A stretch of 64,000 nt of DNA. It comes from a virus. The notes below the pieces were generated by a model. It ran no database searches. It was given only the letters and a program-made list of their open reading frames with translations, and had not been told where the DNA came from. Positions 28,145 to 56,638 of the stretch are shown here, in pieces (position 1 is the stretch's first letter; every line of letters begins with the position of its first letter). The stretch lies in IMG/VR virus record IMGVR_UViG_3300025280_000022, one strand, 5' to 3'. The translations under genes and the position numbers were made by a program.

Positions 28145-28147
28145 AAG

Positions 28148-28759: not shown

Positions 28760-28760
28760 A

Positions 28761-31652: not shown

Positions 31653-31653
31653 G

Positions 31654-32556
31654 ATGAAGTGCACTGTTCCTCAATATGATCGCATCACAGCAGAACGTCT
31701 AAAGAGCTTATGCTGTAATTTTGAATTTACTCCCAGAGGTTTTTCTTCAAAATGTTTAGAAACTGGCGCCCTCCTAGAGGCTCCTCGGCCTCCAGAGCGC
31801 CCTGTAATTTTCTGCAAAGCCGATGATGTGTTATATTTTTTTGAGGAGTGTAAGCGGACTCCTCTTCTCGAGTACGTGCTAGTAACGCATGATAGCGATA
31901 TAAGTATCTCTTCGGAGATTTACAATTTAGCTCCTTCCAATATTTGGGCCTGGTTTGGGCAAAATATCGATCATCGTGCCCCCGATCTTTATTCCATTCC
32001 CATTGGATCCACTATAGCCACCTGGATTGGCGATTCGACTCACGCCCTTCAACGAGAAGTTTCCGATTTTGAGCTCATAGAAGAAACGGGTGACGACAAA
32101 AGTTTTGATAATTTGGTTTATATGAATTTTGGCGCGCACACTAACCCCCATCATCGCCTCCCCATCTATAATGCCTTAAAAGATAAAAGCTGGGTTACCG
32201 CCAGAAGATGCGACGTCCCCCCGAATGAGTATTCAACCTCTCCTCATTTCACTTCCGCGGCCCAATACCTTAAAGAGCTTTACAACCACAAGTTTACAAT
32301 TTCTCCTTTGGGGAATGGGGTAGATTGCGGTCGAGTGTGGCAAGCTTTATATTTAGGTGTTATCCCTATTATTCCGCGCCACATCAATGTAGAGTTTTAT
32401 GAAGATCTGCCTATTTTAATCTATGACGATCTAAGCGAGCTCACGCCCTCCCATCTAGAAACATGCTATATCAACTTAAATTCTTTTCCCCTTTATGATA
32501 AAGCAAAAGCTAGTTATTGGGCTCGTATCATTAAAGAAGCCTCTCACCCCGAATAG
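31654..32556 (+). CDS. Exostosin-like (GT47-related) protein
   Basis: 'HKFTISPLGNGVDCGRVWQALYLGVIPII'. Confidence 0.75.
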   Translation: MKCTVPQYDRITAERLKSLCCNFEFTPRGFSSKCLETGALLEAPRPPERPVIFCKADDVLYFFEECKRTPLLEYVLVTHDSDISISSEIYNLAPSNIWAWFGQNIDHRAPDLYSIPIGSTIATWIGDSTHALQREVSDFELIEETGDDKSFDNLVYMNFGAHTNPHHRLPIYNALKDKSWVTARRCDVPPNEYSTSPHFTSAAQYLKELYNHKFTISPLGNGVDCGRVWQALYLGVIPIIPRHINVEFYEDLPILIYDDLSELTPSHLETCYINLNSFPLYDKAKASYWARIIKEASHPE

Positions 32557-32559
32557 AAG

Positions 32560-33309
32560 ATGTTGGATTTACCTTTTTACGTTTCTACTAATAATAAACA
32601 CTGGAATTGCCTAAGAGTTTTTGCTTATATTTTTAATCATTTTTTACCGCGCCAAGAATTGAGAATATTAGGATACGACCACCCCCCTTTTAATTTACCT
32701 AAAAACTGCAAATTTATCTCCATGGGGGAACAAGGAGGGATTCACGAATGGTCAACAGATTTAAGAAAATACTTCCTGAGCCTAAGTGAAGAATATTTTA
32801 TATACGGCACAGAGGATGTGTTTTTTTATAAAAAACCTCAAATAAAGTATATAAATCATTTAATAAAATTAATAAAAACAACAGAAAACATAGGCAGAAT
32901 TAATCTTGTAGATGCGACAGAAGGATGGATTGAGGACGGGATGGCTGAAAAGGCGTTACCGTTGAGCCTCTATTATAAAGTTGATTTGCTAAAGGAAACG
33001 CCCTCTAGCGAAAGCGAATGGGGAGCATGGAAATTATATCGCCAGACCAAAGAAAGCGACTATAGCTTAACTACGCAATTTTCCATATGGAATAGGAATT
33101 TTTTCTTAAAATATTTAATAGAAGGATTAAGCCCTTGGCAATTTGAAATGGAATCCTCCAGAGCCTCTCAAGATAAAAATTATAAAGTATTAATGGTGGA
33201 CCAGAATTTTCCCATTCATAAATATGAAGGGTATAGTCTCGGAACGTGGACGAACAAAGAATATTGGCTCCACCTATTGAATAATAACCTACGAGCCTTA
33301 ATAACATAA
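32560..33309 (+). CDS. Hypothetical protein, GT-A-like
   Basis: 'YFIYGTEDVFF', 'QFSIWNR', 'SPWQFE'. Confidence 0.55.
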   Translation: MLDLPFYVSTNNKHWNCLRVFAYIFNHFLPRQELRILGYDHPPFNLPKNCKFISMGEQGGIHEWSTDLRKYFLSLSEEYFIYGTEDVFFYKKPQIKYINHLIKLIKTTENIGRINLVDATEGWIEDGMAEKALPLSLYYKVDLLKETPSSESEWGAWKLYRQTKESDYSLTTQFSIWNRNFFLKYLIEGLSPWQFEMESSRASQDKNYKVLMVDQNFPIHKYEGYSLGTWTNKEYWLHLLNNNLRALIT

Positions 33310-33318
33310 GACGAAACA

Positions 33319-33762
33319 ATGAAAAAGATATACTCCCAGATTCAACCAGACGTATTACTGCATCTCGTGCATAGGTTGGAAGATATTGAAAATGAACCCG
33401 AGTCTGACATTCCCCAGCTTGCGAGAATAAATGTCGCCCCGAATGAAGAATTTTTGCAGCTGGCGAGCCTACGGATAGGAGAGGGTAAAACCTTCAAACC
33501 CCATAAACATATTTATAAAAAGGGAGAAGAAGAGGTGATTGCTCAAGAGTCCTGGGTTGTAATAAGGGGAGGTGTAGACGCCATATTGTATGACCTTGAT
33601 GATTCTATAGTGGAAGTTGTTCATCTCCATGAAGGGGATTGCTCTATGACGTTTCGCGGCGGCCATAATTATCTCAGCACAGAAGATAATACTATTGTAT
33701 ACGAGTACAAGACAGGGCCATATAGAGGCGTTAAAAACGACAAGGCGTTTATAGATGATTAA
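33319..33762 (+). CDS. Cupin-fold protein (WbuC-like sugar isomerase)
   Basis: 'PHKH...E...GGH...EYKTGPY'. Confidence 0.75.
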   Translation: MKKIYSQIQPDVLLHLVHRLEDIENEPESDIPQLARINVAPNEEFLQLASLRIGEGKTFKPHKHIYKKGEEEVIAQESWVVIRGGVDAILYDLDDSIVEVVHLHEGDCSMTFRGGHNYLSTEDNTIVYEYKTGPYRGVKNDKAFIDD

Positions 33763-34294
33763 AATTCACATGGGCTGCGGCTGGAGAAATTTTGGCCCAG
33801 GGTGGATACATATAGACGGCGGAGACTATAAACATCTAGACTCCAATAGCATCACTTGTTTGCCTTATGAAAATAATTCCGTAAGCTTAATATATGCTTC
33901 GCATGTCCTAGCCTATTTCGATCGGGAAGAAGTTGTGGCGCTACTAGAAGAGTGGAAGCGCGTATTAAAAACAGGGGCTATTCTGCGCCTGGCGGTTCCT
34001 AATTTCCAAGCTTACGTGAAACTCTATCAGTCTAAGCAAATTACATTAGATCAGTGCCTAGGCCCCTTTTACGGAAAAATGGCGATGGGAGAGAGCTCTA
34101 TATATCATAAAACGGTCTATGATTTTAACTCTCTAAAATCTCTTTTAGAAAAACTAGGTTTTAATAACATTATAAAGTATAAGTGGCAAGAAACTGAACA
34201 CTGCGCTCGTGACGATCACTCGCAAGCCTACATTCCTCATATGGATAAAAATCACGGAACCCTCATGAGCCTAAATGTAGAATGTTTTAAATAA
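33755..34294 (+). CDS. Methyltransferase type 11-like protein
   Basis: 'HMGCG...GWIHID', 'LPYENNSVSLIYASHVL', 'RVLKTGAILRLAVP'. Confidence 0.85.
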   Translation: MIKIHMGCGWRNFGPGWIHIDGGDYKHLDSNSITCLPYENNSVSLIYASHVLAYFDREEVVALLEEWKRVLKTGAILRLAVPNFQAYVKLYQSKQITLDQCLGPFYGKMAMGESSIYHKTVYDFNSLKSLLEKLGFNNIIKYKWQETEHCARDDHSQAYIPHMDKNHGTLMSLNVECFK

Positions 34295-34299
34295 TCAAA

Positions 34300-35154
34300 A
34301 TGACTAAAATTTATTTTGCGCCCAATTGGGGACTGTCTGCCGAGGATATGGTGGCCTGTTATATAAAGCAAAGCCCGAAAGAGTCTGGTTCGTGGGGGAA
34401 AATAAGCCACACAACAGATTTAAACAAAGCAGATTATTTAATAATCGAAGACGAATGCACCGCCGATGTTTATAACAAATTTCCTGCGGATAAAAGGCTT
34501 TATTTTTCTAGGGAAGCTTTAGATCCAAATAGCCACAATAACTACAAAGCAAATCAGGTTAAAAAATTTTCTTTTTGGGATGGGAGCGGCTACCTTTATA
34601 CCAAGTGGATATACCCCAGAGAATATGGAGGGATTAACATGACATATGATAAACTATTGTCCGAGCAAGAACCCAACAAAATAAAAAATATTAGCTGCAT
34701 TCAAACCAATAAAGAGATAACCACAATTCACAAAGCAAGACAGGTCTTCATCAAAAAATACATGAGTCGTTATGACATTGACGTTTATGGCACAATTTCC
34801 TGCGCTAATCGCGCCCTGGAAAACAACGATAAAAAAAACGCACTTGACGAATATAAATATTGTCTTACGTTTGATAACCAAACCACAATTAAAAACTTTT
34901 TTGGAACGCAAGTCACAGACGCCTTATTAAGGTGGACGGTACCCATATATGGGGGCGGAGGAGAACTAGAGAGATATTTTCCCAAGAAATCGTTTATCAA
35001 AATTGATCCGACTGACCTAAATGATATTGACAGAGTTCATGATCTGATAAAAAATGACAACTTTAACGACAGGCGAGAAGCTATTGCGCAAGCCAGAGAC
35101 CTTATCATAAACAAATACAATGTATGGCCCACCATTGAAGCTTTAATAAAATGA
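34300..35154 (+). CDS. GT10 (alpha-1,3/4-fucosyltransferase-like) protein
   Basis: 'KKNALDEYKYCLTFDN...FFGTQVTDALLRWTVPIYGG' is a divergent GT10 motif. Confidence 0.7.
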   Translation: MTKIYFAPNWGLSAEDMVACYIKQSPKESGSWGKISHTTDLNKADYLIIEDECTADVYNKFPADKRLYFSREALDPNSHNNYKANQVKKFSFWDGSGYLYTKWIYPREYGGINMTYDKLLSEQEPNKIKNISCIQTNKEITTIHKARQVFIKKYMSRYDIDVYGTISCANRALENNDKKNALDEYKYCLTFDNQTTIKNFFGTQVTDALLRWTVPIYGGGGELERYFPKKSFIKIDPTDLNDIDRVHDLIKNDNFNDRREAIAQARDLIINKYNVWPTIEALIK

Positions 35155-35951
35155 ACAATATAAAAAATAACGGAGGGTGCATATTCTGCGAAAGAAAAGA
35201 ACACACCACTCTGTATAAATTTGCAGATCTCCCAAGGTACAAACAAATAGGAAAAAGCAGGGACATAGTTAAATGCGAAAACTGTGCCTTGGTATATTGT
35301 TACCCAAGAAATTCGGAAGAATCAATGTTAGACATTTATGAAAATAATTATTGGCAAGACTACCAGACCCAAGTAGGGGAAATGAACATAAATGATAGAA
35401 TTTTAGAATTCGAGACGATCTCCAAGGAAAGAATGACCTACATAGAAAACTTTAAAACATCTGGAAAATTTTTAGACGTCGGATGCTGCATGGGGTTCTT
35501 GGTTAACGAAGCAAATAACAGGGGTTTCGATGCTTATGGAATAGACCTTAACGAAGAAGACATTAACGAAGGAAAGAAAAGATATGATATTAATTTAAAA
35601 AAAACTTTTCTTGAAAATTTTCAACAATATAATTTTGATATAATAACAAGCTTTAATGTCTTGGAACACGTATCAGACCCTGTAAAAATGTTGCTCGAAA
35701 AAAAGAAAAGACTAAAAAAAGACGGCATCATCGTTGTTGGTACTCACGACATAGAATGCCAAAACCACCGAAAAGAGAAGGTAAAATGGAAACACATTAT
35801 ACCAAACGAGCACTTGTATTTTTTTAGCATAGAGACCCTGAGTAATCTGGCCTCAAAAGTAGGATTAAAATTGCTCTACTATAACAAGCCCATCGAGAAT
35901 AGTATTGTTGCATATTTTAAACTCAAAGACTATAATAAACAAAAGGCATGA
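35151..35951 (+). CDS. Class I SAM methyltransferase with N-terminal Zn finger
   Basis: CIFC/CENC, 'FLDVGCCMG', 'NVLEHVSDP', 'EHLYFFS'. Confidence 0.85.
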   Translation: MNNIKNNGGCIFCERKEHTTLYKFADLPRYKQIGKSRDIVKCENCALVYCYPRNSEESMLDIYENNYWQDYQTQVGEMNINDRILEFETISKERMTYIENFKTSGKFLDVGCCMGFLVNEANNRGFDAYGIDLNEEDINEGKKRYDINLKKTFLENFQQYNFDIITSFNVLEHVSDPVKMLLEKKKRLKKDGIIVVGTHDIECQNHRKEKVKWKHIIPNEHLYFFSIETLSNLASKVGLKLLYYNKPIENSIVAYFKLKDYNKQKA

Positions 35952-36004
35952 GTCAACGCTATACAAAACACGACCCAGACAACATAAAAATTCATAAAAT
36001 ATGA
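35948..36004 (+). pseudogene. 18-codon bridging mini-ORF resembling the 5' end of the next gene
   Basis: MSQRYTKHDPDN... versus MSTHYTKLQFDTQDHN..., with ATGA overlaps at both ends. Confidence 0.4.
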
Positions 36005-36666
36005 GCACACACTATACAAAACTCCAGTTTGATACCCAAGACCACAATTTTTTGAAGTCTATCCAAGCCCTCTTTGGCGTTGCTAAGCTCGAAAATATAC
36101 ATGAAAATTTAGGCAATCTTCGCCAATTTACCATGAAGAGCAATTCAGACACGAAGTACCATAAGCTGTTTTATAGCAGATTAAAAAACGATTGGCCCGA
36201 GTTTGAGAAATTATATGACGATTTTATGCGGGGCGTAGTCTATAAAGAAGTGCAAGAAGAATTTATTTATCAAAAGTGGCCCACTTTGCGTATCCACGTT
36301 ACTAACAATTGGGCCACCCCTGAATATCATCGTGATTCACAAGAAGGCTATAATCATCCTCTGGGGGAAATAAATTTCCTTCTGCCACTTACTCGGTGTT
36401 ACGATACAAATACGCTTTGGACGGAATCCGCTTCTGACAAAGGGGATTTTGCTCCTGTAAAGATGGAATGGGGCGACTTAGTGACCTTCAACGGAAGCGA
36501 GTGTAGGCACGGAAATAAAATAAACGATACCCCCACAAGCAGGGTATCTTTTGATTTTAGGGTTTTACCTTTACGTTACTATGACCCCACTGCCATAAAA
36601 ATTTCCCAGACAACCAATACCCGCTTTGAGGTGGGTCATTATTATAAAGAGCTCAAAAAGATTTAA
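36001..36666 (+). CDS. StrG-like Fe(II)/2-oxoglutarate dioxygenase
   Basis: 'YQKWPTLR', 'HRD...YNHPLGEIN', 'HGNKINDTPTSRVSFDFR'. Confidence 0.75.
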   Translation: MSTHYTKLQFDTQDHNFLKSIQALFGVAKLENIHENLGNLRQFTMKSNSDTKYHKLFYSRLKNDWPEFEKLYDDFMRGVVYKEVQEEFIYQKWPTLRIHVTNNWATPEYHRDSQEGYNHPLGEINFLLPLTRCYDTNTLWTESASDKGDFAPVKMEWGDLVTFNGSECRHGNKINDTPTSRVSFDFRVLPLRYYDPTAIKISQTTNTRFEVGHYYKELKKI

Positions 36667-36668
36667 AC

Positions 36669-36697
36669 TTGACTTAAATATAATATTGTGGTATTAT
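36669..36697 (+). promoter_or_regulatory. sigma70 promoter, near-leaderless
   Basis: TTGACT-N17-TATTAT, 8 nt before ATG 36706. Confidence 0.65.
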
Positions 36698-36705
36698 CAC
36701 ATCCG

Positions 36706-37809
36706 ATGAATATAGCACAAATGCGTCCTTATGTAGGACTTGATGACTACAAGGCCCTCCGATCTTGTTTTGAGATCAATTGGGTTACCGAAGGCCCCCA
36801 AGCCAAAGAATTCATCGAAGAAATTTGTCGTCTTACCGAAGTAAAGTATGGGGTTTTAGCTCCAAATGGGACTCTAGCACTTTTTTTAGCCTTAAAAGCC
36901 TTAGGCATTCAAGAGGGAGACGAAGTTCTAGTCCCTGATTTTACCTTTATCGCTTCTGCTACCTCTGTACAATTAACTGGAGCCACCCCTCTTTTTGTAG
37001 ATGTGGATTATTCCACCCTGCAGCTCGATGTAAACAAGTGCAAGGAACGTTTAACTTCTCGCACTAAAGCAATTATGCCCGTACATATGTATGGAGCTGC
37101 TTGCGATATGACTCAGTTAATGCAGTTCGCCGAAGAGCATAATCTTTTAGTTATCGAGGACGCGGCCCAGGCCCTAGGAATCAGCTGGAAGGATAAAGCG
37201 TGCGGGAGCTTTGGAAACGCGGGATGTTTTTCATTTTTTGCAGATAAAACCATTACTACTATTGAGGGGGGCTTTATTGGAACCAATGATCATACCACCT
37301 ATGAGCGATTACTATATTTACGTAATCAAGGCAGAATTAATAGCGGAACCTTTGTTCACCCCGAGCTTGGTTACAATTTCCGCATGACGGATATACAGTG
37401 CGCCTTAGGACTTAACCAGCTTCGCAAAAAAGATTTCATTTTTAGGCGCAAACTGGAAAACTTTGCTTTTTACGAAAGGGTCCTTGTAGAGAATTCCCAC
37501 TTGCGCCTCATGAAGCCCCAAGCGGGTTCAGGGTTTATGCCATTTCGTGCGGCGCTTGTATTAAACGAGGAGGCCGCTCCACTTTCAGAGTTTTTGGCCA
37601 CAAAGGGCATTCAGGCCCGAACATTTTTTTATCCCCTCCACCGCCAGCCCTGCTTTCAATATCTGCAATCGCTTAATCCCCCTTCTTTATTTCCTAATTC
37701 TGCCAAACTTTTTAACAATGGACTATGCCTTCCTATCTACCCCGATTTAACCGAAGAAGAAATCACTTACATCTGCGATGCAATACAAGAATATTATAAA
37801 AATAAATGA
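36706..37809 (+). CDS. DegT/DnrJ/EryC1/StrS aminotransferase (perosamine synthase-like)
   Basis: 'NGTLAL', 'IEDAAQALG', 'SFFADKTITTIEGG', 'LGYNFRMTDIQCALG'. Confidence 0.92.
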   Translation: MNIAQMRPYVGLDDYKALRSCFEINWVTEGPQAKEFIEEICRLTEVKYGVLAPNGTLALFLALKALGIQEGDEVLVPDFTFIASATSVQLTGATPLFVDVDYSTLQLDVNKCKERLTSRTKAIMPVHMYGAACDMTQLMQFAEEHNLLVIEDAAQALGISWKDKACGSFGNAGCFSFFADKTITTIEGGFIGTNDHTTYERLLYLRNQGRINSGTFVHPELGYNFRMTDIQCALGLNQLRKKDFIFRRKLENFAFYERVLVENSHLRLMKPQAGSGFMPFRAALVLNEEAAPLSEFLATKGIQARTFFYPLHRQPCFQYLQSLNPPSLFPNSAKLFNNGLCLPIYPDLTEEEITYICDAIQEYYKNK

Positions 37810-38564
37810 GTGCCTATAAATCTAAGTTAGTAGAGCACTACGATTCCCTTTTTGCTCCCAAAGATTATAAAGGGGAAGCGGCTTTAATTTATAGATTATG
37901 CGGGGGACCTATCCAGATACAAAAAATCCTGGACATAGGCTGCGGCACGGGGTCCCACTTGCCCCATCTTTTACTTAATGCTTCGCAGCAAATAACAGGA
38001 ATTGATATCTCTAGAGAGATGATTGACAAAGCCAAAGAAAAAAACCTTTCTTCACAAATCAACTTTATACATGGAGAGGTTCAGTCGCTGAAGGGAAATA
38101 AATTCGATCTTGCAATTAGTATGTTTAATGTAATAAATCACCTCGATAGCATACAGGAATTAAAACTTTTTTTTAAAAGCGTGAGGGAGTGCCTCTATAA
38201 AAATTCTAAATTTATATTTGATTGTTGGAATGGCGTAGCAGCATTACGTGAGGAGCCAAGGAGCAATCAACGTATTATTGAAAGCGCAGTAGGGGGCCAT
38301 TTTATTCTAAAGCAAACACCCCAAACAAATTTATTAACAGGACATGTAGAAATTGAAAACCAGGTAGATGTTTATTATCTGGAAGAGCGCGTAGATAGTT
38401 TTACCTATACCTTAGATCATTGGCTGTGGACGCCTTCAGTTTTAAGTGAACTACTTGCGCAAAGCGGCTTTATAGTAGAAGGCATTTACAAGCATAACCT
38501 CACGGAAATCGAAAGCGCTGTTGCTGACGATTTTAAAGTAATTTTTATGGCCACCGCCATATAA
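37806..38564 (+). CDS. Class I SAM methyltransferase (sugar methyltransferase-like)
   Basis: 'YDSLFAPKDYKGEA', 'ILDIGCGTGSH', 'FIFDCWNG'. Confidence 0.85.
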   Translation: MSAYKSKLVEHYDSLFAPKDYKGEAALIYRLCGGPIQIQKILDIGCGTGSHLPHLLLNASQQITGIDISREMIDKAKEKNLSSQINFIHGEVQSLKGNKFDLAISMFNVINHLDSIQELKLFFKSVRECLYKNSKFIFDCWNGVAALREEPRSNQRIIESAVGGHFILKQTPQTNLLTGHVEIENQVDVYYLEERVDSFTYTLDHWLWTPSVLSELLAQSGFIVEGIYKHNLTEIESAVADDFKVIFMATAI

Positions 38565-38569
38565 TCATT

Positions 38570-46504: not shown

Positions 46505-46552
46505 CACTATTGGCGCAGAAGTTTCGTAACATACTAGGTGTATTCATTGCTA

Positions 46553-48508
46553 ATGAAATACCTCACCTTCTTTTTGCTTGCAATTAAATGTTGGGCATTT
46601 GATCCGCTTGCCCATACAGCCAAAATCGATAGCCTCATCAACCAAGGATTGATGGCCCAGCATATTCCTTCTAATAATATAGCCAAGGACGAAGAATTTG
46701 CAAAAAGGCTCTATTTAAGCGCCGCAGGCCGTCTGCCTACTTATGATGAAATCCTTCAATATGCTCAGGACGGAAGTTCCTACAGGCGCCAAAAACTCAT
46801 AAATAGAATTCTTAACAGCGAAGCTTATGTCTCTAATTATTTTAACTTCTGGGCCGATATTTTAAGAGTACAACGAAATCTTCCCAATAACGCCAATCGT
46901 TATGGTGCGGGAGAGGCATATATCCAATGGATTAAGCGCGCTTTAAGAGACAATATGCCCTACAATGAGCTTGTATACAATTTAGTAACAGCGCGGGGTA
47001 CTCCATGGGAAAATGGCGCCGTGGGGTATTATTTGCGTGACCCTGGAATGAATTTGGATAATACAGCGAGCACAATTCAGGTGTTTTTGGGGACTCGTAT
47101 AGGGTGCGCTCAATGCCACGATCACCCTTTTGATGACTGGACTCAATATGAATATTATGAACTAGCTGCATTTCAATGGGGTGTTGAAACTAGAATAAGC
47201 CCAGAGATGCGGAACATTGTTAATAAAAAAATAAAAGACAATAAATTATTTGCAGGAGACAATAAAAAGAAAAACGAATTAAACAAACTTGTTCGGGAAA
47301 TTTTTGAGCCCGTAAGTCATGGCGTTAAAGCCAACAACAAGAAAAATCTTCAATTACCCCATGACTATAAATATGAAGACGCCAAACCCAAAGAGGTGGT
47401 GGGGGCGAGAGTAATTCTTGGAGACAAGATAGAACTTACGCAGGAGAGCGTCAAAATAGAAGAATTCGGCGAATGGCTCACCAGTCCAACCAACCCCTTC
47501 TTCACCAAAACAATCGCCAATCGCTTGTGGAAAAAAGTCATGGGCGCTGCACTTATCGAACCAATTGATGACATCAAGGCAGATAGCGTTGCGTCGAATC
47601 CGAAACTACTACAAGCCCTTGAGGACACAATGAGGAAAGTAGACTATGATTTAAAAAAATTTTTAGCCATCCTTTACAATACGCAAGCTTTTCAGCGCCA
47701 GGCAGTTCAAGCGGATATCGAGCCAGGGCAGCCCTTTTACTATCAAGGTCCTCTCGTGCAAAGAATGTCAGCTGAACAAATTTGGGATAATGTAGTAACC
47801 TTAATAGTTCCCCGAGCCGACGATAGAAAAAAGTTTCATAATTACGAGAGATTAATAGAAGCCCAGAAGTATGGAAAAGTTGTTGAGGATAAAAGTGCAG
47901 ACGAAATCATAAAGCTGGCGCGTGAAGTAGTAGAAATAGATAGCAAATTTAGCTCTCGACTCGCCGCCCTTAACAAGAAAATTGCCGCCGCCAAGAAAGA
48001 AAAAAATCCTCAACTGCAGAAAGAATTACGTACGCAACTCATTAAGGTCACCAAGGAAAGAAAAAATGCCCGAGGCATGAAGCTCTACGGAATAGATTTT
48101 CGCAAGCTCAAATCCAACAATGATTACGATTTGCCGTGGAAGAAGTACGGCAAACACCTAATTAGGGCGAGCGAGGTAGATTCCCCTGCGCCTGGCAGCC
48201 ATTTTCTTAGAGAATTTGGATCCGCCGATAGAGCCAGTATTGAGTCTAGTCGTCGGGAAGCCACGGTTCCGCAGCTTTTAAGTCTTTTAAATGGCAACCT
48301 CTACCGAGAAATAGCTAACCCGAGCTCCGTCTTGATGGAAAAATTGGCGCAGCATAAAGAGGATAAAACCAAACAAATTAAAATTATTTACCTCAGCATG
48401 CTTTGCAGGCAACCCACGGCCCCCGAGATAGAATTATTTAGGGAAGAGCTCCTGCATGATATCATTTGGGTGATACTCAATACCAAGGAATTTATCTTCA
48501 CGGTTTGA
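46553..48508 (+). CDS. DUF1549 (PSCyt2)/DUF1553 (PSD1) exported protein
   Basis: Signal peptide, 'FAKRLYLSAAGRLPT', 'FWADILR', 'FLGTRIGCAQCHDHPFDDWTQ', 'NPFFTKTIANRLWK', 'RMSAEQIWD', 'TVPQLLSLLNG', 'WVILNTKEFIF'. Confidence 0.92.
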   Translation: MKYLTFFLLAIKCWAFDPLAHTAKIDSLINQGLMAQHIPSNNIAKDEEFAKRLYLSAAGRLPTYDEILQYAQDGSSYRRQKLINRILNSEAYVSNYFNFWADILRVQRNLPNNANRYGAGEAYIQWIKRALRDNMPYNELVYNLVTARGTPWENGAVGYYLRDPGMNLDNTASTIQVFLGTRIGCAQCHDHPFDDWTQYEYYELAAFQWGVETRISPEMRNIVNKKIKDNKLFAGDNKKKNELNKLVREIFEPVSHGVKANNKKNLQLPHDYKYEDAKPKEVVGARVILGDKIELTQESVKIEEFGEWLTSPTNPFFTKTIANRLWKKVMGAALIEPIDDIKADSVASNPKLLQALEDTMRKVDYDLKKFLAILYNTQAFQRQAVQADIEPGQPFYYQGPLVQRMSAEQIWDNVVTLIVPRADDRKKFHNYERLIEAQKYGKVVEDKSADEIIKLAREVVEIDSKFSSRLAALNKKIAAAKKEKNPQLQKELRTQLIKVTKERKNARGMKLYGIDFRKLKSNNDYDLPWKKYGKHLIRASEVDSPAPGSHFLREFGSADRASIESSRREATVPQLLSLLNGNLYREIANPSSVLMEKLAQHKEDKTKQIKIIYLSMLCRQPTAPEIELFREELLHDIIWVILNTKEFIFTV

Positions 48509-48540
48509 GGGTTTGGGTTTTTGGTGTATAATAATATGTA

Positions 48541-49581
48541 ATGTTTCTGAAAAAATTGCTGCCTCTCCTAGGGGTGTTGTTGTCAATCAACACCTTGGGC
48601 GCAGCAGAAAACGAAACACCAGCCCCGTTCTACCTGTGGGGTGGCAGCGGGACCACCACCCCCATTGGAGTAACGAATATTACCCTTCCCGATGGAACCC
48701 CCAAAGACCCAAGTTATACTTTTATATCAAGCTCATACGATCAAGAACTTGCATACTCAGGATTTATTGACGGTATTAATGGGGTGACTTTAACGCTTGA
48801 TGGATTGGTGAATTTCTTCGATGACCCTGGCTATCAGGAAGACGAATTAATAGAAACCCCTCATTTATTAAGGCTCAGGGACGGAAACCCGCTTTATCAT
48901 GGTATGGCATTTCCACTCTTAGGTAATAAGGAGAATGATGTAGTGATAAATGTATCGCCAAATGATATTACAACGTATTTTACCGTAGGTGATGCTGTTG
49001 ATATAATACAAGCCAATACCATCGGTGGCCTTTTGGGAACAGGGGAAAATTTTACGGGGTTAGCGGGAAAGCCAAATCAGGGAGATAATCTTATGATTTG
49101 GACAACTTACGGTTGGAAAACTTATTTCTATTACCAAGATAAATGGCAAACTTTTGGCACTCGAAACGATCAATCCGCTACTATTGTTTATCCTGATGAA
49201 GGGGTGGTATACATAAGAAGAAGTGACGCGCTGACTGTGTCGTTTTCGGGATCTGTCCCCTTTACGGTTCAGTCTTATCGCCCAGGGAGCGATGCGAAAT
49301 TCTTAATGTCTAATCCCTTTCCTATCCCAGCGACTTTAAGTCAACTTATTGACACTAGTTCAAATTGGATGTCGGGAACAATACTGGATGAAATAGACCA
49401 AGTCCTCTTTTGGTCGGGAACTGTGTGGCAAGCATATTATCATAATGGCTCCGATTGGATTAACCTTACAAGTTCAGAAATAGACGATAAAGAGGTGGAG
49501 GGGGGAGAAGCATTCTTCATAGTTAGGGCCGCAAATAGCTCCTTAACTGCGGGCTACAACAAGATAGATATCCCTCAATGA
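48541..49581 (+). CDS. TIGR02597-like verrucomicrobial secreted protein
   Basis: Signal peptide, 'TTPIG', two 'D.(L/V)..W....W..Y(F/Y)Y....W' repeats, 'IVYPDEG...RR', 'NPFP...TLSQL'. Confidence 0.6.
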   Translation: MFLKKLLPLLGVLLSINTLGAAENETPAPFYLWGGSGTTTPIGVTNITLPDGTPKDPSYTFISSSYDQELAYSGFIDGINGVTLTLDGLVNFFDDPGYQEDELIETPHLLRLRDGNPLYHGMAFPLLGNKENDVVINVSPNDITTYFTVGDAVDIIQANTIGGLLGTGENFTGLAGKPNQGDNLMIWTTYGWKTYFYYQDKWQTFGTRNDQSATIVYPDEGVVYIRRSDALTVSFSGSVPFTVQSYRPGSDAKFLMSNPFPIPATLSQLIDTSSNWMSGTILDEIDQVLFWSGTVWQAYYHNGSDWINLTSSEIDDKEVEGGEAFFIVRAANSSLTAGYNKIDIPQ

Positions 49582-49880
49582 AATCGTGCCTGATATTTTA
49601 TCTTGCTGCATTGGCCCTTCTCGGGCAGCCTACGGCAGTAGCCAATACTATTGAAGTTAAAATCAAAGGGGTCGTATGTGCCTTCTGCAGCGTCGGCTTA
49701 AGAAAAAATCTAATCAAGACAGGAAAAGTAAAATCCGTAACATGCAATACAAAAAATAAAATTTCCACAATCCACTTAAAAGAAAACAAAAACCTTTCCG
49801 ATAAAGAAATAAAAGACGCAGTAAAAAAGGCTGGCTATAGCATCTTCGATAAAGGCATCACAAGAAAGCCGTGTAAATGA
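49578..49880 (+). CDS. Exported heavy-metal-associated (HMA, MerP/CopZ-like) protein
   Basis: Signal peptide, 'IKGVVCAFCSVGL', 'IKDAVKKAGY'. Confidence 0.85.
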   Translation: MKSCLIFYLAALALLGQPTAVANTIEVKIKGVVCAFCSVGLRKNLIKTGKVKSVTCNTKNKISTIHLKENKNLSDKEIKDAVKKAGYSIFDKGITRKPCK

Positions 49881-50425
49881 TAAAGTTTGCGTTAATATTT
49901 TCTTTTATTGCCTGCGGGCTTTTTGGGCAACGCGCGAAAGGAGAACGGCCTCCCACTTTTGACTCTCGGCCAATCCCCAAATATACTTATCCTGACAAAA
50001 CAGACAAGGATCTGGCTAAATTATTTAAAGTAAAGCCATGGAACACATCCAAGCTTCTCTGCTTTGACACCCGCTATATAGGGGTGGATTTTAGGTATTT
50101 CACTGAATATGCCGCCTGGTTTAACAAATTTCGCGACAAATATTTCCCCACCCACAAATCTCAGGCATTTGATTGCGATAATTTTGCTTTTCTATACAAA
50201 GACCTGATGATTTCTTCTGTTTTTAAAAAAGATAGCAAAAGACAAATACTCGTGGGAGTATTAGTTGTAAACAGCGAAAAAGAATTTCATGGAATAGGAG
50301 GAGAAGGCATGCATGCATTAAATATAATTCATACGAGCGCAGGCTGGTATGTAGTGGAGCCCCAAAATGGAAAATATACTGAGCTAGAAAACTATACCAA
50401 CCCTATTGTAAAATATATCTTTTAG
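49877..50425 (+). CDS. Exported papain/transglutaminase-like protein (MOA agglutinin C-domain-like)
   Basis: 'FDCDNFA' (Cys), 'HALN' (His), 'VEPQN' (Glu), plus an N-terminal signal. Confidence 0.65.
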   Translation: MIKFALIFSFIACGLFGQRAKGERPPTFDSRPIPKYTYPDKTDKDLAKLFKVKPWNTSKLLCFDTRYIGVDFRYFTEYAAWFNKFRDKYFPTHKSQAFDCDNFAFLYKDLMISSVFKKDSKRQILVGVLVVNSEKEFHGIGGEGMHALNIIHTSAGWYVVEPQNGKYTELENYTNPIVKYIF

Positions 50426-50438
50426 TGTAGTATGATGC

Positions 50439-51689
50439 ATGAATGAGATAGAGCGAAGAGAATTTATATCACTTGCGGCCAAGTCTTTTTTGGGCGTAAC
50501 TGCCGCCGCGAGTTTTGTTCCGCCAGTTTTTGCTGGGGATTTTGTGCCGACGGCGAAGAATGTTATATATCTTTACATGAATGGGGGAATGACCCATCTA
50601 GATACTTTTGATCCTAAGCCAGGAGCGGAAACCCAAGGCCCGACCAAGGCCATTAGAACCAATATAGACGGACTTATTCTCAGCGAAAATTTTCCTAAAC
50701 TGGCACACATTATGGATAAGGTGGCGCTCATTCGTTCGATGAATTCAACCACAGGTGCTCACGGTCAAGGACAATACCTGTTCCACACTAGCTACAAGCC
50801 TCGCAACACCCTTAAGCATCCCTTTTTAGGGGCCTGGATAACTAAATTAAGCGGTAAATTAAACCGTAAATTGCCTGGAAGCGTTGGAGTTTCCACCCCA
50901 AGTAATTTAGCTGGATCAGGTTTTTTTGAATCAATTCATCAACCATTAGTAATAGGGGACCCCAACCAAGGCTTGAAAAACAGCAAGCACCCCGAACAGC
51001 AAAAATTTGATAAAAGGCTGAATCTCTTATCCAAGGCCGAGCAAAACTTTTTAGAAAGATATAAGAATCTTAACGCCATTAAAGCCTATGCGGAAATGTA
51101 TGATGACGCCATTAGCTTGATGTCTAGCGATGATCTTCGCGCTTTCGACTTAAAACAAGAAGATTCCAAAATGCGAGAAATGTACGGGACTGATCGTTTT
51201 GGGCAGGGAGTGCTATTAGCCCGCCGCCTCGTGGATAGAAATGTGCGTTTCGTGGAAGTCCAATATGGAGGATGGGATACCCACCAGAATAATTTTATCA
51301 AGGTGCCGCAACAAACAGCTATTGTAGACCAGGCACTAAGCACCCTTATTCGCGATCTTGAGGCGAGAGGCAAGCTGGACGAAACCCTAATTGTGTTGGC
51401 TACGGAATTTGGGCGAACCCCCAATATAAATAAAAATCAAGGGCGCGATCATTACCCGAAGGCCTTTAGCTGTCTTATGGCGGGAGGAGGCATCAAAGGA
51501 GGAATAGCTTATGGCAAAACCGATCCTCTAGGCAAAGAGGTGATCGAAAATAAAACTTCCATTCAAGACTTTAACGCTACAATTGCTTACGCCATGGGTA
51601 TAGCGCCCAATGAAGTAGTTAATGCGCCAAACGGCAGACCTTTCAAGATGGGGAACGGTGGCGAGCCACTTACCTCTCTCTTTATTTAA
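50439..51689 (+). CDS. DUF1501 protein with Tat signal
   Basis: 'ERREFI', 'AKNVIYLYMNGGMTHLDTFDPKP', 'LARRLV..NVRFVEV', 'GWDTH', 'TEFGRTP', 'GRDHYP', 'MAGGGIKGG'. Confidence 0.93.
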   Translation: MNEIERREFISLAAKSFLGVTAAASFVPPVFAGDFVPTAKNVIYLYMNGGMTHLDTFDPKPGAETQGPTKAIRTNIDGLILSENFPKLAHIMDKVALIRSMNSTTGAHGQGQYLFHTSYKPRNTLKHPFLGAWITKLSGKLNRKLPGSVGVSTPSNLAGSGFFESIHQPLVIGDPNQGLKNSKHPEQQKFDKRLNLLSKAEQNFLERYKNLNAIKAYAEMYDDAISLMSSDDLRAFDLKQEDSKMREMYGTDRFGQGVLLARRLVDRNVRFVEVQYGGWDTHQNNFIKVPQQTAIVDQALSTLIRDLEARGKLDETLIVLATEFGRTPNINKNQGRDHYPKAFSCLMAGGGIKGGIAYGKTDPLGKEVIENKTSIQDFNATIAYAMGIAPNEVVNAPNGRPFKMGNGGEPLTSLFI

Positions 51690-51710
51690 TATAGCATAAA
51701 GAATAAAGCC

Positions 51711-51739
51711 TTGACATTTTAATAATTCCATGTTAAGAT
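51711..51739 (+). promoter_or_regulatory. sigma70 promoter
   Basis: TTGACA-N17-TAAGAT, followed by an AAGGA SD-like sequence and ATG 51774. Confidence 0.7.
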
Positions 51740-51773
51740 ATGACCTTCTTAACATTAAAAAAGGATTATTATT

Positions 51774-53309
51774 ATGAAAAAATTACTTATCGGGTTTATA
51801 GGTTTTATAGTTTTCGCTTCGGTATTACTGGGGGAGCACTCCTCCAAGTTTGTAGTAGCGCATTATGATATGGATAGGAAATCAAGGGAGCAGGTTGTTT
51901 CCCTATGGTTCGATTATCTCAATACAGAGGAAATCCCTCAGGCTTTAATCGCAGAAGCCAGTTCCTCCACCAGCGACAAGGTAGTGCCCGTTGTGGCAGG
52001 CATATATAATGGCGTCAAGTTTGACGGTCTGGTGGCAGATCATGCGGGAATAGGGGTTCATAAGCTGGATCCGTGGCCCAAATCGGGTTTAGTAGGATGG
52101 GGTCTTAGTGGAGGTTCTAGAGGTAAAGGGCTCAGATGTGGGTTTAGAAACCTTCCTACTCAGCCAATATATGAGGCGATGGGGTTCCCAGTTATGGAGT
52201 CGGGGGAGAAATTGGTAATTACTATTAGTGCCATTTTTGCCCAAGGCAAAAAGGTAATCTTGCATGAGGTCGAATTTAATTACGGCAGCTGGAAATATAC
52301 GGCGACTACCCCCATGACGGTAGTGCTGAGCGACGACCCCGAAAAGGAAAAGGCTGAAGAGCCTGTTGAGCAGCCTGTTGAGCAGCCTGTTGAGCGGCCT
52401 GTTGAGCAGCCCCTCGAAGAGGTGGTGACACAAGCTCCCGCTCACCTACGACCCGTTTTTGAATACGGCGCAGCCCCTTTTAAGGGCAACTATACTATCG
52501 ATTTGCCTGAGGGCGAAACTTCGGTTATTCGTGATGGAGATGTTACTGATCCTAATGGAGATATGATTAACCGCGTTCAAGTCACTGGAGGCAGTGATGC
52601 AAATAAGTTCAGGGCTAGTTTCGACTTTATCAAGAACGCCTATACGCTTGATTTTAAAGTGAATTTCGTTCCAGATTATGAGAATCCCGCGGACTTGGAT
52701 GGAGATAATTCTTATGAGGTTATACTTAGGGCTGAAGATGTAACTGGGGCACACGCTTATGCAACTTTTACCGTGAGAATTGGGGATGTAGAAGATGGTG
52801 GGAAGAAGACTTCTCACGCACCCCTTCCCCCAACACCAGTTCCCCCCAAAGTTGTTACCCCGCCTGCTGTAATTAAGAAGCTGCCCCAACTCCCGAGGCG
52901 TTCTCTCCAGTTATTCACTCAAGAAGAAGTGGATAAGCGTATCGCAGCTGTACGCGCCGAACTTTTTACGGCTAAAGAAGTGGATAAGCGTATCGCGGCT
53001 GTGCGGGCAGAGCTTGAGAATCTTGTCGCTCAAGCCCTTGAGCGTGGAAAATCAGAAGGGATCGCCGCCGTTAAGCAGGACCCAGCGGCCTTTGATTTAA
53101 CCGTAGAAACTGCTTCCCCTCCCTTTATCGTAGGTTGGGCTTATGTCGAAAACTTAGGATGGATTTACGTTTCTGCAGAAAATTTCCCTTTTATTTTTGT
53201 GGAAAAATTAAAATCCTGGGTATTGATTCAAGAAGAGGTGGGAGTTTTGGCTTATTTTATCTATAACTCTCAGCAGTGGGTTACTTATTCGGAACTGCTT
53301 ATTTTATAA
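51774..53309 (+). CDS. Secreted/surface protein with cadherin-like domain, Pro-rich linkers and a Trp-rich C-terminal domain
   Basis: Signal peptide, 'PDYENPADLDGDNSYEVILRAED', C-terminal 'GWAYVENLGWIYV...FPFIF...SW'. Confidence 0.75.
   Translation: MKKLLIGFIGFIVFASVLLGEHSSKFVVAHYDMDRKSREQVVSLWFDYLNTEEIPQALIAEASSSTSDKVVPVVAGIYNGVKFDGLVADHAGIGVHKLDPWPKSGLVGWGLSGGSRGKGLRCGFRNLPTQPIYEAMGFPVMESGEKLVITISAIFAQGKKVILHEVEFNYGSWKYTATTPMTVVLSDDPEKEKAEEPVEQPVEQPVERPVEQPLEEVVTQAPAHLRPVFEYGAAPFKGNYTIDLPEGETSVIRDGDVTDPNGDMINRVQVTGGSDANKFRASFDFIKNAYTLDFKVNFVPDYENPADLDGDNSYEVILRAEDVTGAHAYATFTVRIGDVEDGGKKTSHAPLPPTPVPPKVVTPPAVIKKLPQLPRRSLQLFTQEEVDKRIAAVRAELFTAKEVDKRIAAVRAELENLVAQALERGKSEGIAAVKQDPAAFDLTVETASPPFIVGWAYVENLGWIYVSAENFPFIFVEKLKSWVLIQEEVGVLAYFIYNSQQWVTYSELLIL
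52359..52418 (+). repeat. 12-bp tandem repeat x5 (E/Q/R-P-V-E linker)
   Basis: gagcctgttgag, cagcctgttgag x2, cggcctgttgag, cagcccctcgaa. Confidence 0.9.
52911..53015 (+). repeat. 51-bp tandem duplication (LFTxxEVDKRIAAVRAE x2)
   Basis: AAGAAGTGGATAAGCGTATCGC at 52924 and 52975. Confidence 0.85.
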
Positions 53310-53327
53310 TAATCCCTCCTCACTCGG

Positions 53328-53362
53328 AGCAGGGCGTCCTTCGGGGCGCCCTGCTTTTTTTT
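53328..53362 (+). terminator. Strong intrinsic terminator
   Basis: AGCAGGGCGTCC-TTCG-GGGCGCCCTGCT followed by a T-run, cUUCGg loop. Confidence 0.92.
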
Positions 53363-53397
53363 ATTTAAAAATCACTTTTTCACCTTACTATAAGTAG

Positions 53398-54132
53398 ATG
53401 GCCAAAAAATCTTCTCAGAAAACTCAAAAAGAAATTGATGCGCAAGTTGCCAAGACCCTTGCAGAAGCGCATAGGGCGGAGGCAGAAAAGAAGAAGATCG
53501 AAGCAGAAACCGAACGCATCCTTTCCGATATTGAAAGGTATAAGGTAAACCAGCGTATTTCTGAAATTGATTTAGAAAAAAAAGAAAAAGAGCTGCGAAG
53601 AGAAGCGGCCTGTGACTCTGAAAATATGGTTTATCGATTCAATACCGCAGTTGACAAAACCCATGTTCACCAATGCATGCATACATTAACCCAATGGTCT
53701 CGACGACACCCTAAGTGCGATATTGAAATAGTTTTTTCTTCGGGCGGAGGTAGTATTACGGATGGGTTTGAGCTTTTCGATTTCATTCAGGAACTACGGG
53801 AGAAGGATCATAAAGTAACCACGGGCTCTCTCGGGATGGCAGCCTCAATGGCGGGTATTTTACTTCAAGCAGGGGAACATCGGTGGATAGGGCACCAAGC
53901 CTGGATGATGATTCATCGAGCTGCTTTCGGGGTAATAGGCAAGACTTTCATAATCGAAGATGAAGTGGCATGGATTAAAAGAATTGAAGATAGGATTTTA
54001 GATATTTTCGTAAAAAGGTCTAACCTGAGTCGATTAAAAATTAAAAGAAACTGGGACCGCAAAGACTGGTGGATTTCTTCCGATGAAGCCCTGGAACTAG
54101 GTTTAGTAGATGAAGTTAAGGGTAAAATCTAA
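53398..54132 (+). CDS. ClpP-like serine protease with N-terminal coiled coil
   Basis: 'SSGGGS..DG', 'GMAASMA' (Ser), 'MMIH' (His), 'RKDWWISSDEALELGLVDEV' (Asp). Confidence 0.9.
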   Translation: MAKKSSQKTQKEIDAQVAKTLAEAHRAEAEKKKIEAETERILSDIERYKVNQRISEIDLEKKEKELRREAACDSENMVYRFNTAVDKTHVHQCMHTLTQWSRRHPKCDIEIVFSSGGGSITDGFELFDFIQELREKDHKVTTGSLGMAASMAGILLQAGEHRWIGHQAWMMIHRAAFGVIGKTFIIEDEVAWIKRIEDRILDIFVKRSNLSRLKIKRNWDRKDWWISSDEALELGLVDEVKGKI

Positions 54133-55624: not shown

Positions 55625-56638
55625 ATGCAGGATAAAACAGGAGAACTTTTAACTAAAAACATTGCGGGGGTAAATAGAATTCTTCCCCACAAGCATAAAT
55701 TTGCCTGGGATCTTTTTCTTAAAGGGTGCGCCAACAATTGGATGCCTACCGAAATTTCCATGCAGCAGGACATTAAGCAGTGGAAAGGCGGTGAAATTTC
55801 CGATGATGAAAAACTTTTAGTAAAAAGGTGTCTTGGTTTTTTTGCGGGCAGTGAATCGTTGGTGGGGAATAACCTATTGCTTTCGGCCTTTAAGTATATT
55901 ACCGACGCTGAATGCCGTCAATATATCCTCAGGCAAGCCTTTGAAGAAAGTTTGCATAATTTAACCATAGTATATATTTGTGATAGCCTTGATTTGGATA
56001 TAGATGAGGTATATCGGGCCTACGAGACAATCCCCTCCATTAAAGCTAAGGATGATTTTTTGATGGAGGTAACCAGTGACCTTAATCGAACAGGCTTTTC
56101 CACATCTACCCTTGAAGGCAAAAAAGAATTTTTAAAAAATTTATTTACTTATTATGTGATCTGCGAAGGAACTTTTTTCTATTCAGGATTTGCCATGCTT
56201 TTAGCGCTCGGTAGACAAAATAAGCTTCAGGGCGTATCCGATCAAATCAAATATACTCTTCGTGACGAGAGCCTCCATATTGAATTCGGGCTTTATCTTA
56301 TTAATACGCTCATCGAACAGAATCCAAAAATTTGGACAACCGCCATTAAGGCAGAGTTTGTAGAACACATGAAAAAAACAGTGGAGCTGGAGATAGAGTA
56401 CGCAAAAGAGGTGTTGCCCACAGGGATTTTAGGATTAAATTCTTCTATGTTTGTTGACTACATGCATTATATAGGCAATCGCCGACTAGAAGCCGTGGGG
56501 CTGGATTATCGCTTTCCTTCGGACAGCAATCCCTTTCCATGGTTAGCAGAAGTGGTTGACACCCAAGCTATGACAAATTTCTTTGAGCGGCGCGTAAGAG
56601 AGTATCAACAAAGCGGTTCCCTAAAAGACGATTTTTAA
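55625..56638 (+). CDS. nrdB: Ribonucleotide reductase beta subunit, class Ic-type signature
   Basis: 'NNWMP', 'FFAGSESLVGNN', 'EESLH', 'EGTFFYSGF', 'RDESLH', 'NFFE..V.EYQ'. Confidence 0.95.
   Translation: MQDKTGELLTKNIAGVNRILPHKHKFAWDLFLKGCANNWMPTEISMQQDIKQWKGGEISDDEKLLVKRCLGFFAGSESLVGNNLLLSAFKYITDAECRQYILRQAFEESLHNLTIVYICDSLDLDIDEVYRAYETIPSIKAKDDFLMEVTSDLNRTGFSTSTLEGKKEFLKNLFTYYVICEGTFFYSGFAMLLALGRQNKLQGVSDQIKYTLRDESLHIEFGLYLINTLIEQNPKIWTTAIKAEFVEHMKKTVELEIEYAKEVLPTGILGLNSSMFVDYMHYIGNRRLEAVGLDYRFPSDSNPFPWLAEVVDTQAMTNFFERRVREYQQSGSLKDDF

Follow-up and report, generated by a model that had tools for sequence, protein, structure and literature searches.

Why a phage should carry two exported proteins of a bacterial module, and what they might do there, is the question raised by the virus record IMGVR_UViG_3300025280_000022, of which a stretch of 64,000 nt (hereafter the window, to which all coordinates refer) was analysed. 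The two are a PSCyt2/PSD1 (DUF1549/DUF1553) protein and a DUF1501 protein. In Planctomycetota, Verrucomicrobiota and Lentisphaerota, DUF1501 together with PSCyt1, PSCyt2 and PSD1 has been described as a 'conserved genetic module', which is known from genomes only (Kamneva et al. 2012, PMC3542564; He et al. 2017, PMC5615132). The literature search found no paper that treats both DUF1501 and DUF1549 or that links either family to phages, in line with an earlier note on this DNA, which knew of no described phage role.

Between positions 46538 and 51689 the window holds five consecutive and tightly packed genes on the + strand, whose products all have export-type N-termini as read from the sequence. 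The genes of the pair are the first and the last of this block:

46553..48508, + strand, PSCyt2/PSD1 (DUF1549/DUF1553) protein, 651 aa (Pfam)
48541..49581, + strand, TIGR02597-like exported protein, 346 aa (NCBIfam below cut-off, Atlas)
49578..49880, + strand, HMA (MerP/CopZ-like) predicted periplasmic metal-binding protein, 100 aa (Pfam/NCBIfam below cut-offs)
49877..50425, + strand, Agglutinin_C/Lectin_C_term-like (papain/transglutaminase-like) probable lipoprotein, 182 aa (Pfam below cut-off)
50439..51689, + strand, DUF1501 protein with a Tat-type signal, 416 aa (Pfam 2e-115)

The distance from PSCyt2/PSD1 to DUF1501 is 1.9 kb, with three genes between them. The earlier note had described an intact DUF1549/DUF1553 protein and a Tat-exported DUF1501 protein, with export signals on all five products; the signals are readable at the N-termini, and Pfam placed all three domains of the pair far above their cut-offs. 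The analyses presented below give an even chance to the reading that the pair is a host-derived auxiliary periplasmic esterase, which maintains the supply of a nutrient, most likely phosphate, while the infection proceeds.

The DUF1501 protein and its predicted fold

The DUF1501 protein was matched with 386 bits against the Pfam cut-off of 27, and its leader (RREF, a hydrophobic stretch and VFA) is of the Tat type. All polar residues that are invariant in the family are kept: H53, T56, D58, K60, H108, D280, H282, E323, R326, D337 and H338. The structural model had a mean predicted local distance difference test (pLDDT) value of 82. The comparison of residues 34-416 of this model with solved structures by VIA-align gave Z-scores of 20.0 to 15 and 68 chains with Z of at least 8. 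The best neighbours were ENPP6 (Z 20.0, root mean square deviation 2.8, 244 aligned residues), ENPP7 (19.3), PafA (18.9) and the Xac NPP (18.6), followed by many sulfatases at Z 17-18. Foldseek retrieved sulfatases, LtaS and phosphonate monoester hydrolase with E of about 1e-6, with a probability of 1.00 to sulfatases and LtaS. The predicted fold is that of the alkaline phosphatase superfamily, closest to the NPP/PafA phosphoesterases and then to the sulfatases.

The resemblance to the formylglycine sulfatases (PF00884) lies in this fold, and the setting would also fit, as Planctomycetes-Verrucomicrobia-Chlamydiae (PVC) bacteria are rich in sulfatases and the phages described below are rich in sulfotransferases. 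However, the C/SxPxR formylglycine motif was not found in the protein, which has a single Cys, and no PF00884 Sulfatase match was obtained at E ≤ 0.01 in Pfam. To NPP/ENPP phosphodiesterases and PafA-type alkaline phosphatases the likeness extends to conserved Asp/His pairs and a Thr, a candidate metal site and nucleophile, whereas the sequence identity is only 11-16%, and neither Pfam Phosphodiest nor Alk_phosphatase was matched. The fold and the kept invariant polar residues together fit an active metal-dependent esterase, leaning in the model towards a phospho(di)esterase, with a small margin over the sulfatases.

The PSCyt2/PSD1 protein and the predicted heterodimer

In the partner protein, the PSCyt2 domain (140.5 bits, 9e-41) is followed by the PSD1 domain (114.3 bits, 8e-33). 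The CxxCH motif C185-A-Q-C188-H189, which lies within the CAQCHDHP that the earlier note had pointed out, is invariant in 68 homologues, and the leader MKYLTFFLLAIKCWA is of the Sec type. The AlphaFold model (pLDDT 92, predicted template modelling score 0.92) is all-helical, with a long hairpin at 445-514. Foldseek and VIA-align found no solved structural relative of this model, apart from a generic helical match of the hairpin 445-514 at Z of about 8, and no cytochrome fold was matched by either program, a result as compatible with haem on the CxxCH motif as with its absence.

The complex of the two proteins was predicted from residues 24-651 of PSCyt2/PSD1 and residues 40-411 of DUF1501. It scored 0.77, compared to 0.31 for the best of three controls; such a mark is reached by 58 of 80 solved complexes and by 2 of 110 mismatched pairs, counts that are only rough here because custom alignments were used. 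The runs share at least 87% of the contacts, and the pLDDT of the partner is at least 85. Sequence searches of the PDB with each of the two proteins returned nothing, so the result is not a remembered complex. In the predicted interface, the C-terminal region of PSD1 (547-649) lies against the helical lid of DUF1501 (179-228) and residues 283-287, beside D280/H282, and the invariant PSCyt2/PSD1 residues R105, D163, R404, Q574, L576, N580 and E625 fall within it. The prediction supports binding of PSCyt2/PSD1 and DUF1501 as a heterodimer, a pairing that the earlier note had proposed, with HMA added, for modelling. In this respect DUF1501 would differ from the NPP/ENPP and PafA enzymes, which have no such subunit, as it appears to need a large helical partner.

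The three middle genes

The family labels that the earlier note gave to the three middle genes stand in part: matches to TIGR02597, HMA and Lectin_C_term/Agglutinin_C exist, but all are below the cut-offs and justify only a 'like'. The 346-aa protein was matched by TIGR02597 of NCBIfam at 8.5e-9 (34.8 bits, cut-off 50) and had an Atlas feature score of 0.97 to Verrucomicrobial TIGR02597 clusters. Its family comprises 322 representative clusters (phmmer), in which it either stands alone as a protein of about 335 aa or forms the C-terminal domain of very large secreted Verrucomicrobial proteins (PATR-repeat, rhamnosidase with F5/8-C, purple-acid-phosphatase/LamG), an architecture that suggests a surface-attachment or binding domain. 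The 100-aa protein, with the CxxC motif CAFC, was matched by HMA at 4e-4 (21.1 bits, cut-off 24.8) and by MerP at 1e-6 (29.2 bits, cut-off 92.6). Homologues with 70-93% identity were found in related marine phage-like contigs, two of them annotated by the Joint Genome Institute as mercuric ion binding protein. Both the 346-aa and the HMA protein have Sec-type leaders.

The 182-aa protein resembles the C-terminal domain of the Marasmius oreades agglutinin (Agglutinin_C/Lectin_C_term), which is papain-like with a Cys-His-Glu triad. The match to the Pfam family is weak (1e-4, 23.1 bits, cut-off 27.1), and the Cys, His and Glu are kept, Asp99-Cys100, His146 and Glu161-Pro-Gln being invariant in four phage homologues. 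Unlike the agglutinin domain, the protein is small and stands alone, its leader has a lipobox-like FIAC, and its look-alike clusters in the Atlas are mostly viral. The PDB sequence search with this protein returned nothing.

The arrangement of these genes in related contigs shows that the block is composite. In L195/L196 the three genes, 93% identical to those of the window, are followed by a paralogue of the 182-aa gene, ClpP and nrdB, and DUF1501 is absent there. In L018 the order is DUF1501, PSCyt2/PSD1, a LamG protein, a 346-aa homologue and a 182-aa homologue; in L019-L021 a 182-aa homologue and nrdB precede PSCyt2/PSD1, DUF1501 and a 346-aa homologue; and L024/L025 carry a divergent DUF1501, a LamG/Big protein and homologues of the 346-aa and 182-aa proteins without PSCyt2/PSD1. 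The two genes of the pair are adjacent in the relatives L018, L019 and L001. Among 80 bacterial loci, none had any of the middle three genes within 6 kb of the pair, and 73 held the PSCyt2/PSD1 gene too, directly upstream of DUF1501 wherever coordinates were read. Since the trio occurs without DUF1501, the pair is adjacent elsewhere and none of the 80 bacterial loci unites them, the pair is one unit and the trio a second, separately mobile sub-cassette, which here lies inside the pair. Both are found between nrdA and ClpP/nrdB, in an island of exported proteins whose content varies. The reading of the earlier note, which had taken the five genes for one functional system, is not supported.

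As a side observation, L195 has two 182-aa-type paralogues side by side (589-1137 and 1514-2059), 93% and 49% identical to the protein of the window, which suggests rapid diversification of this exported protein.

Phage context and distribution

The island that contains the block is bounded by genes of the phage, as the earlier note had stated for nrdA and nrdB and as Pfam and PHROG matches confirmed:

41823..44273, + strand, nrdA, left landmark of the variable island (Pfam 1.7e-174)
51774..53309, + strand, neighbouring exported 511-aa protein with a cadherin-like segment
53398..54132, + strand, ClpP-like protease (phrog_94), conserved right-hand neighbour of the island
55625..56638, + strand, nrdB, right landmark (phrog_86, 6.6e-74)

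The relatives found via DUF1501 carry the same genes beside nrdA/nrdB, with 59-89% identity. The nrdA gene is 59-79% identical in related phage contigs with the pair, the ClpP-like protease 71-77% identical in L018, L024 and L195, and nrdB 80-89% identical in many IMG/VR and Tara contigs.

A bacterial origin of the DNA itself, either by misassembly or binning or as a bacterial island, would agree with the finding that, apart from phage-like contigs, only bacteria supplied close homologues of the pair and that none of the five block genes has a PHROGs family. It is nevertheless very improbable. The stretch 44100-54000 is present in at least 10 marine metagenome runs at no less than 74% of sampled words, with no RNA run among the sequencing runs listed, and contigs from runs other than the likely source bridge every joint: 45333-47111 across the left edge, 47485-49586 within the block and 49506-54000 across the right edge. 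In a variant strain of about 93% identity, a 44.7-kb contig carries the PSCyt2/PSD1 gene at one of its ends. Bacterial sequences reach no more than 57-60% identity and have no flank in common with the block, the same pair lies by nrdA/nrdB in many contigs bearing rIIB, and the start motif of the phage stands upstream of four block genes. Together, the bridging contigs, the related contigs with rIIA and rIIB, and the start motif leave very little room for misassembly or contamination, and the block is real phage DNA, as the earlier note had argued.

The profile scan of IMG/VR yielded 490 stretches encoding relatives of DUF1501; the locus counts given here refer to the best 80 of these, which are 41-50% identical to the DUF1501 protein of the window. 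A PSCyt2/PSD1 gene lies within 5 kb of DUF1501 in 62 of the 80, nrdB (80-84% identity) is present in 34 and nrdA (71-75%) in 29. In about one fifth (L113, L127, L135, L153, L170 and 13 more) no PSCyt2/PSD1 was detectable within 5 kb; at such loci the partner is encoded elsewhere or too diverged, or the partner of the host is used. Five of five IMG/VR contigs tested (116-195 kb, two of them 100% complete by CheckV) carry rIIB, between one and nine sulfotransferases and exactly one DUF1501. The 116-kb contig of L002 (relative G001) encodes rIIA, rIIB, DNA polymerase, clamp loader, DNA ligase, PhoH, dCMP deaminase and nine sulfotransferases. Pfam Terminase_6C gave no match in four related IMG/VR contigs, and phage identity was established by other genes. 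The tblastn search of DUF1501 against 50,697 GenBank phages returned a single weak partial match. As host-type genes in a bona fide phage genome, with phage flanks and kept in related phages, the two genes of the pair qualify as auxiliary metabolic genes of a phage.

In the 195-kb contig rated 100% complete, DUF1501 (G004:C1:192585-193779) is split into two frames of 317 and 128 aa, which may be a frameshift or a decaying copy.

The sulfotransferases of the related large phages are paralogous (phrog_3347) and similar to Galactose-3-O-sulfotransferase, and the window has one, at 41110-41685. Pfam Sulfatase was found in none of the five related IMG/VR contigs, and sulfotransferases without it point to sulfated glycans being made by these phages. 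The window has a large glycan island at 26595-41685, with GT2, GT15 (Glyco_transf_15, mostly eukaryotic), an RXYLT1-like protein, several methyltransferases, two DegT aminotransferases, a GDP-mannose dehydratase, an epimerase and a sulfotransferase. In L019/L020 (12239-17057) the DUF1501 pair is closely followed by a PrkA/DUF444/SpoVR trio, known as a bacterial starvation-response operon, an inorganic pyrophosphatase and an IMPDH-like gene. Also, a DUF2827 protein (Pfam 5e-58) at 44687-45811 of the window and at 4620-5726 of L023 recurs in this phage group beside genes of nucleotide metabolism.

Directly after the block, the 511-aa protein makes a sixth exported product in series. Its gene has its own promoter-like site (51711-51739) and is followed by the only strong terminator of the region (53326-53357); it is a unit separate from the block. 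The protein had no match in Pfam, PHROG or NCBIfam and no significant similarity to the 346-aa protein on direct comparison, and a homologue was found in one of the 80 IMG/VR loci.

The GTGTA start-proximal motif

The pentamer GTGTA is rare in the window, with 18 occurrences on the + strand against about 76 expected (approximately four-fold under-represented). As (A/G)GTGTA(A/T) it recurs about 14-17 nt before ATG codons:

46538..46542, + strand, GTGTA 15 nt before ATG 46553
21668, 41808, 44280, 45822, 46538, 48524, 50425 and 54160, + strand, motif about 14-17 nt before ATGs
17230 and 23508, - strand, the same motif before ATGs

The genes so marked include nrdA (motif at 41808), those starting at 44295 and 21682, and two on the minus strand. 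In the block, further copies at 48524, 49871 (just 6 nt before the ATG) and 50425 each precede the next gene, so that four of the five genes carry the motif 6-17 nt before their ATG; the motif reported by the earlier note is present, and its count of three was too low. In the closest relatives, L018 and L024, GTGTA precedes nrdA and neighbouring genes, including DUF1501 of L024. Because it stands before the block genes as it does before other phage genes, the block uses the phage's own start signal. GTGTA might act in transcription, as a promoter -10-like element of near-leaderless transcripts, or else serve as a signal for processing or translation. The longest PSCyt2/PSD1 open reading frame opens at GTG 46538, which belongs to the motif itself, and translation most likely begins at ATG 46553, from where the product has an ordinary MK leader (MKYLTFFLL...).

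Origin of the pair

The nearest non-phage DUF1501 sequences belong to Verrucomicrobiota (54-60% identity), the best of them (57-60%) being found in metagenome-assembled genomes of Opitutia/Puniceicoccaceae; near-identity to a bacterial chromosome, which the earlier note had listed as refuting its reading, was not observed. In the tree of 114 DUF1501 rows, seven phage relatives (identity 77-79%) group with the window sequence in one clade, with a Shimodaira-Hasegawa-like approximate likelihood ratio support of 100 and a stem of 0.54, and these eight rows are placed inside the Verrucomicrobiota sequences. In the tree of 192 rows, the window clade shares a starred set with 63 rows from bacteria, almost exclusively Verrucomicrobiota; the IMG/VR group with the nrd genes closest to those of the window lies outside this set. 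In the PSCyt2/PSD1 tree the window clade is found in the same part of the Verrucomicrobiota, and the matching placement of both genes fits their transfer as a pair.

The trees were quick LG+G4 inferences, and the groups for the approximately unbiased (AU) test were named after the first tree was seen; with these limits, the test rejected a single clade for the window group and the nrd-closest IMG/VR group (log-likelihood difference 144.6, p = 8e-9). The check proposed in the earlier note, whether the phage copies form a clade, came out negative for these two phage groups. The third IMG/VR group (L003-L017) and the DUF1501 sequences of L024/L025 lie on long separate branches. The rejection and these branches indicate that related phages acquired this host module, or exchanged it, on more than one occasion at an nrd-linked locus, and by its sequence the window pair differs in origin from the pair of the nrd-closest IMG/VR phages.

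The Opitutia loci with the highest identity have a conserved synteny of a 681-aa TonB-dependent receptor, the pair, a peptidylprolyl isomerase, DUF3299 and a MacB-type ABC protein. The best NCBIfam match of the receptor is of the haem/haemoglobin type (7.5e-51, below the cut-off), and a HupE/UreJ gene lies near it. The TonB-receptor context was considered as a mark of the donor operon and rejected as unproven, the sister clade not being settled by the trees.

Comparison with known systems

With the module of PVC bacteria the window pair shares both Pfam architectures, the CxxCH motif, the Tat signal on DUF1501 and the signal peptide on the partner. DUF1501 is 57-60% and PSCyt2/PSD1 38-40% identical to the Opitutia orthologues, and the pair nests among Verrucomicrobiota genes. 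Unlike the bacterial module, it is phage-encoded and present in a single copy, its PSCyt2/PSD1 protein is among the shortest (651 aa compared to about 680-890 aa), PSCyt1, Big_2 and carbohydrate-binding module additions are lacking, the phage start motif is used, and the two genes are not adjacent, being split by three unrelated genes for exported proteins.

Marine cyanophages carry the auxiliary phosphate-acquisition genes pstS, phoA and phoH. The window pair is similar to these in being host-derived, with a predicted exported or periplasm-directed nutrient function in a marine phage, and PhoH occurs in its relatives; it differs in belonging to another family, in having two subunits and in that its function is here proposed. 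Particular to the window are the trio inside the split pair, the origin separate from the pair of the nrd-closest phages, the controlled support for the heterodimer and the fold leaning towards NPP/PafA.

Proposed role of the pair and alternatives

The nutrient-esterase reading, to which the even chance stated at the outset refers, is based on the TonB receptor before the pair in Opitutia, on the nucleotide-supply neighbours of the island (nrdA and nrdB, and in relatives pyrophosphatase, IMPDH, PrkA/SpoVR and PhoH) and on the start motif common with nrdA. Among the roles suggested in the earlier note (remodelling of the periplasm or surface, processing dependent on metal or haem, nutrient capture, superinfection exclusion), the evidence leans to nutrient capture by an esterase and leaves the others less probable. 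The pair would have been captured by a large marine phage lineage bearing rIIA/rIIB from Verrucomicrobiota, with orthologues of the Opitutia/Verrucomicrobiales type, and kept in the variable island of exported proteins by nrdA, nrdB and ClpP. Expression would start from the GTGTA-marked phage starts, jointly with the genes of nucleotide metabolism. The Sec-exported helical PSCyt2/PSD1 and the Tat-exported DUF1501 would then meet in the host periplasm and form the heterodimer, with the C-terminal region of PSD1 capping the helical lid next to the putative DUF1501 metal site. In that compartment the complex would most likely cleave a phospho- or sulfo-ester that serves as a nutrient, and the phage would profit from a supply, of phosphate above all, that continues during infection. 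The trio, a TIGR02597-like surface domain protein, an HMA metal binder and a lipoprotein-like Cys-His-Glu protease/transglutaminase, would be a mobile sub-cassette that landed inside the pair.

Several observations weigh against this proposal. The Z-scores of phosphodiesterases and sulfatases differ by just 2-3 units, and the ester may be of either type. The CxxCH motif and Sec export of PSCyt2/PSD1 suit a c-type haem subunit and are unusual for a plain hydrolase. The link to the TonB receptor is confined to the Opitutia clade, and the trees do not separate Opitutia from the receptor-free Verrucomicrobiales clade as the sister group. The accessory genes stay in the island of the pair in several relatives and may have a functional link to it. 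Finally, the sulfotransferases (one to nine) and the large glycan island of these phages suit a role on surface glycans equally well, and one IMG/VR group has a sulfotransferase between the two genes of the pair.

The last point belongs to the main alternative, a rather unlikely one in our view, in which the exported pair, the surface-type proteins and the genes of glycan synthesis and sulfation modify the host envelope, leading to receptor masking (superinfection exclusion) or to release. It would account for six consecutive exported proteins, for the large glycosyltransferase/methyltransferase/sulfotransferase island just upstream, for sulfotransferases in every related phage contig tested and between the pair genes in some IMG/VR contigs, for the TIGR02597 domain at the end of giant secreted proteins and for the LamG/Big proteins in the same island of relatives. 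Bacterial PSCyt proteins are, moreover, often fused to carbohydrate-binding domains (PMC3542564, PMC5615132). However, DUF1501 is without the formylglycine motif and the five relatives are without a Pfam Sulfatase gene, the best structural neighbours of DUF1501 are phosphodiesterases, the accessory genes move independently of the pair, and the GTGTA motif common with nrdA suggests co-expression with nucleotide metabolism. A further explanation, which we regard as improbable, is that PSCyt2/PSD1 is a c-type haem or metal subunit and HMA a metallochaperone, the complex handling haem, iron or a metal chelate delivered by a TonB receptor. In its division into a Tat-exported partner of catalytic type and a Sec-exported one with a haem motif, the pair resembles periplasmic redox enzymes; the invariant CxxCH, followed by His-Pro, stands on a Sec-exported protein, an HMA gene is enclosed by the pair in the window and found again in related phages, and the bacterial TonB receptor is best matched by haem/haemoglobin models, with HupE/UreJ nearby. 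Against this, the DUF1501 fold belongs to hydrolases and transferases and is not known from any redox enzyme, no cytochrome fold was matched by the PSCyt2/PSD1 model, HMA is missing from the island in L018, L019 and L024, and the receptor assignment is below the cut-off.

Implications

The nutrient-esterase reading can be drawn further, to a form that is bolder and that we consider unlikely, slightly more so than a role at the host envelope: the pair would be an obligate heterodimeric periplasmic phospho(di)esterase with a non-catalytic, all-helical haem/metal subunit of new fold, whose paralogues were repeatedly captured at an nrd-linked locus by marine phages of Verrucomicrobiota and feed phosphate to the synthesis of deoxynucleoside triphosphates. 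Few families without a known function are larger in Planctomycetota and Verrucomicrobiota than DUF1501 with PSCyt/PSD, whose paralogous pairs number from tens to more than 100 per genome, and this redundancy makes the bacterial genetics of DUF1501 pairs hard. If the bolder form is true, the phage copy would be a minimal single-copy entry to a PVC family that has been without an assigned function for twenty years. The single, short and intact phage pair is a tractable model, with confident folds, a predicted interface and defined invariant residues. It is, in addition, a sign that a class of auxiliary genes of large marine phages has been overlooked (at least 490 IMG/VR stretches), and suggests Verrucomicrobiota as the hosts of a big group of uncultured phages, in which one host module has been repeatedly captured or replaced at one phage locus.

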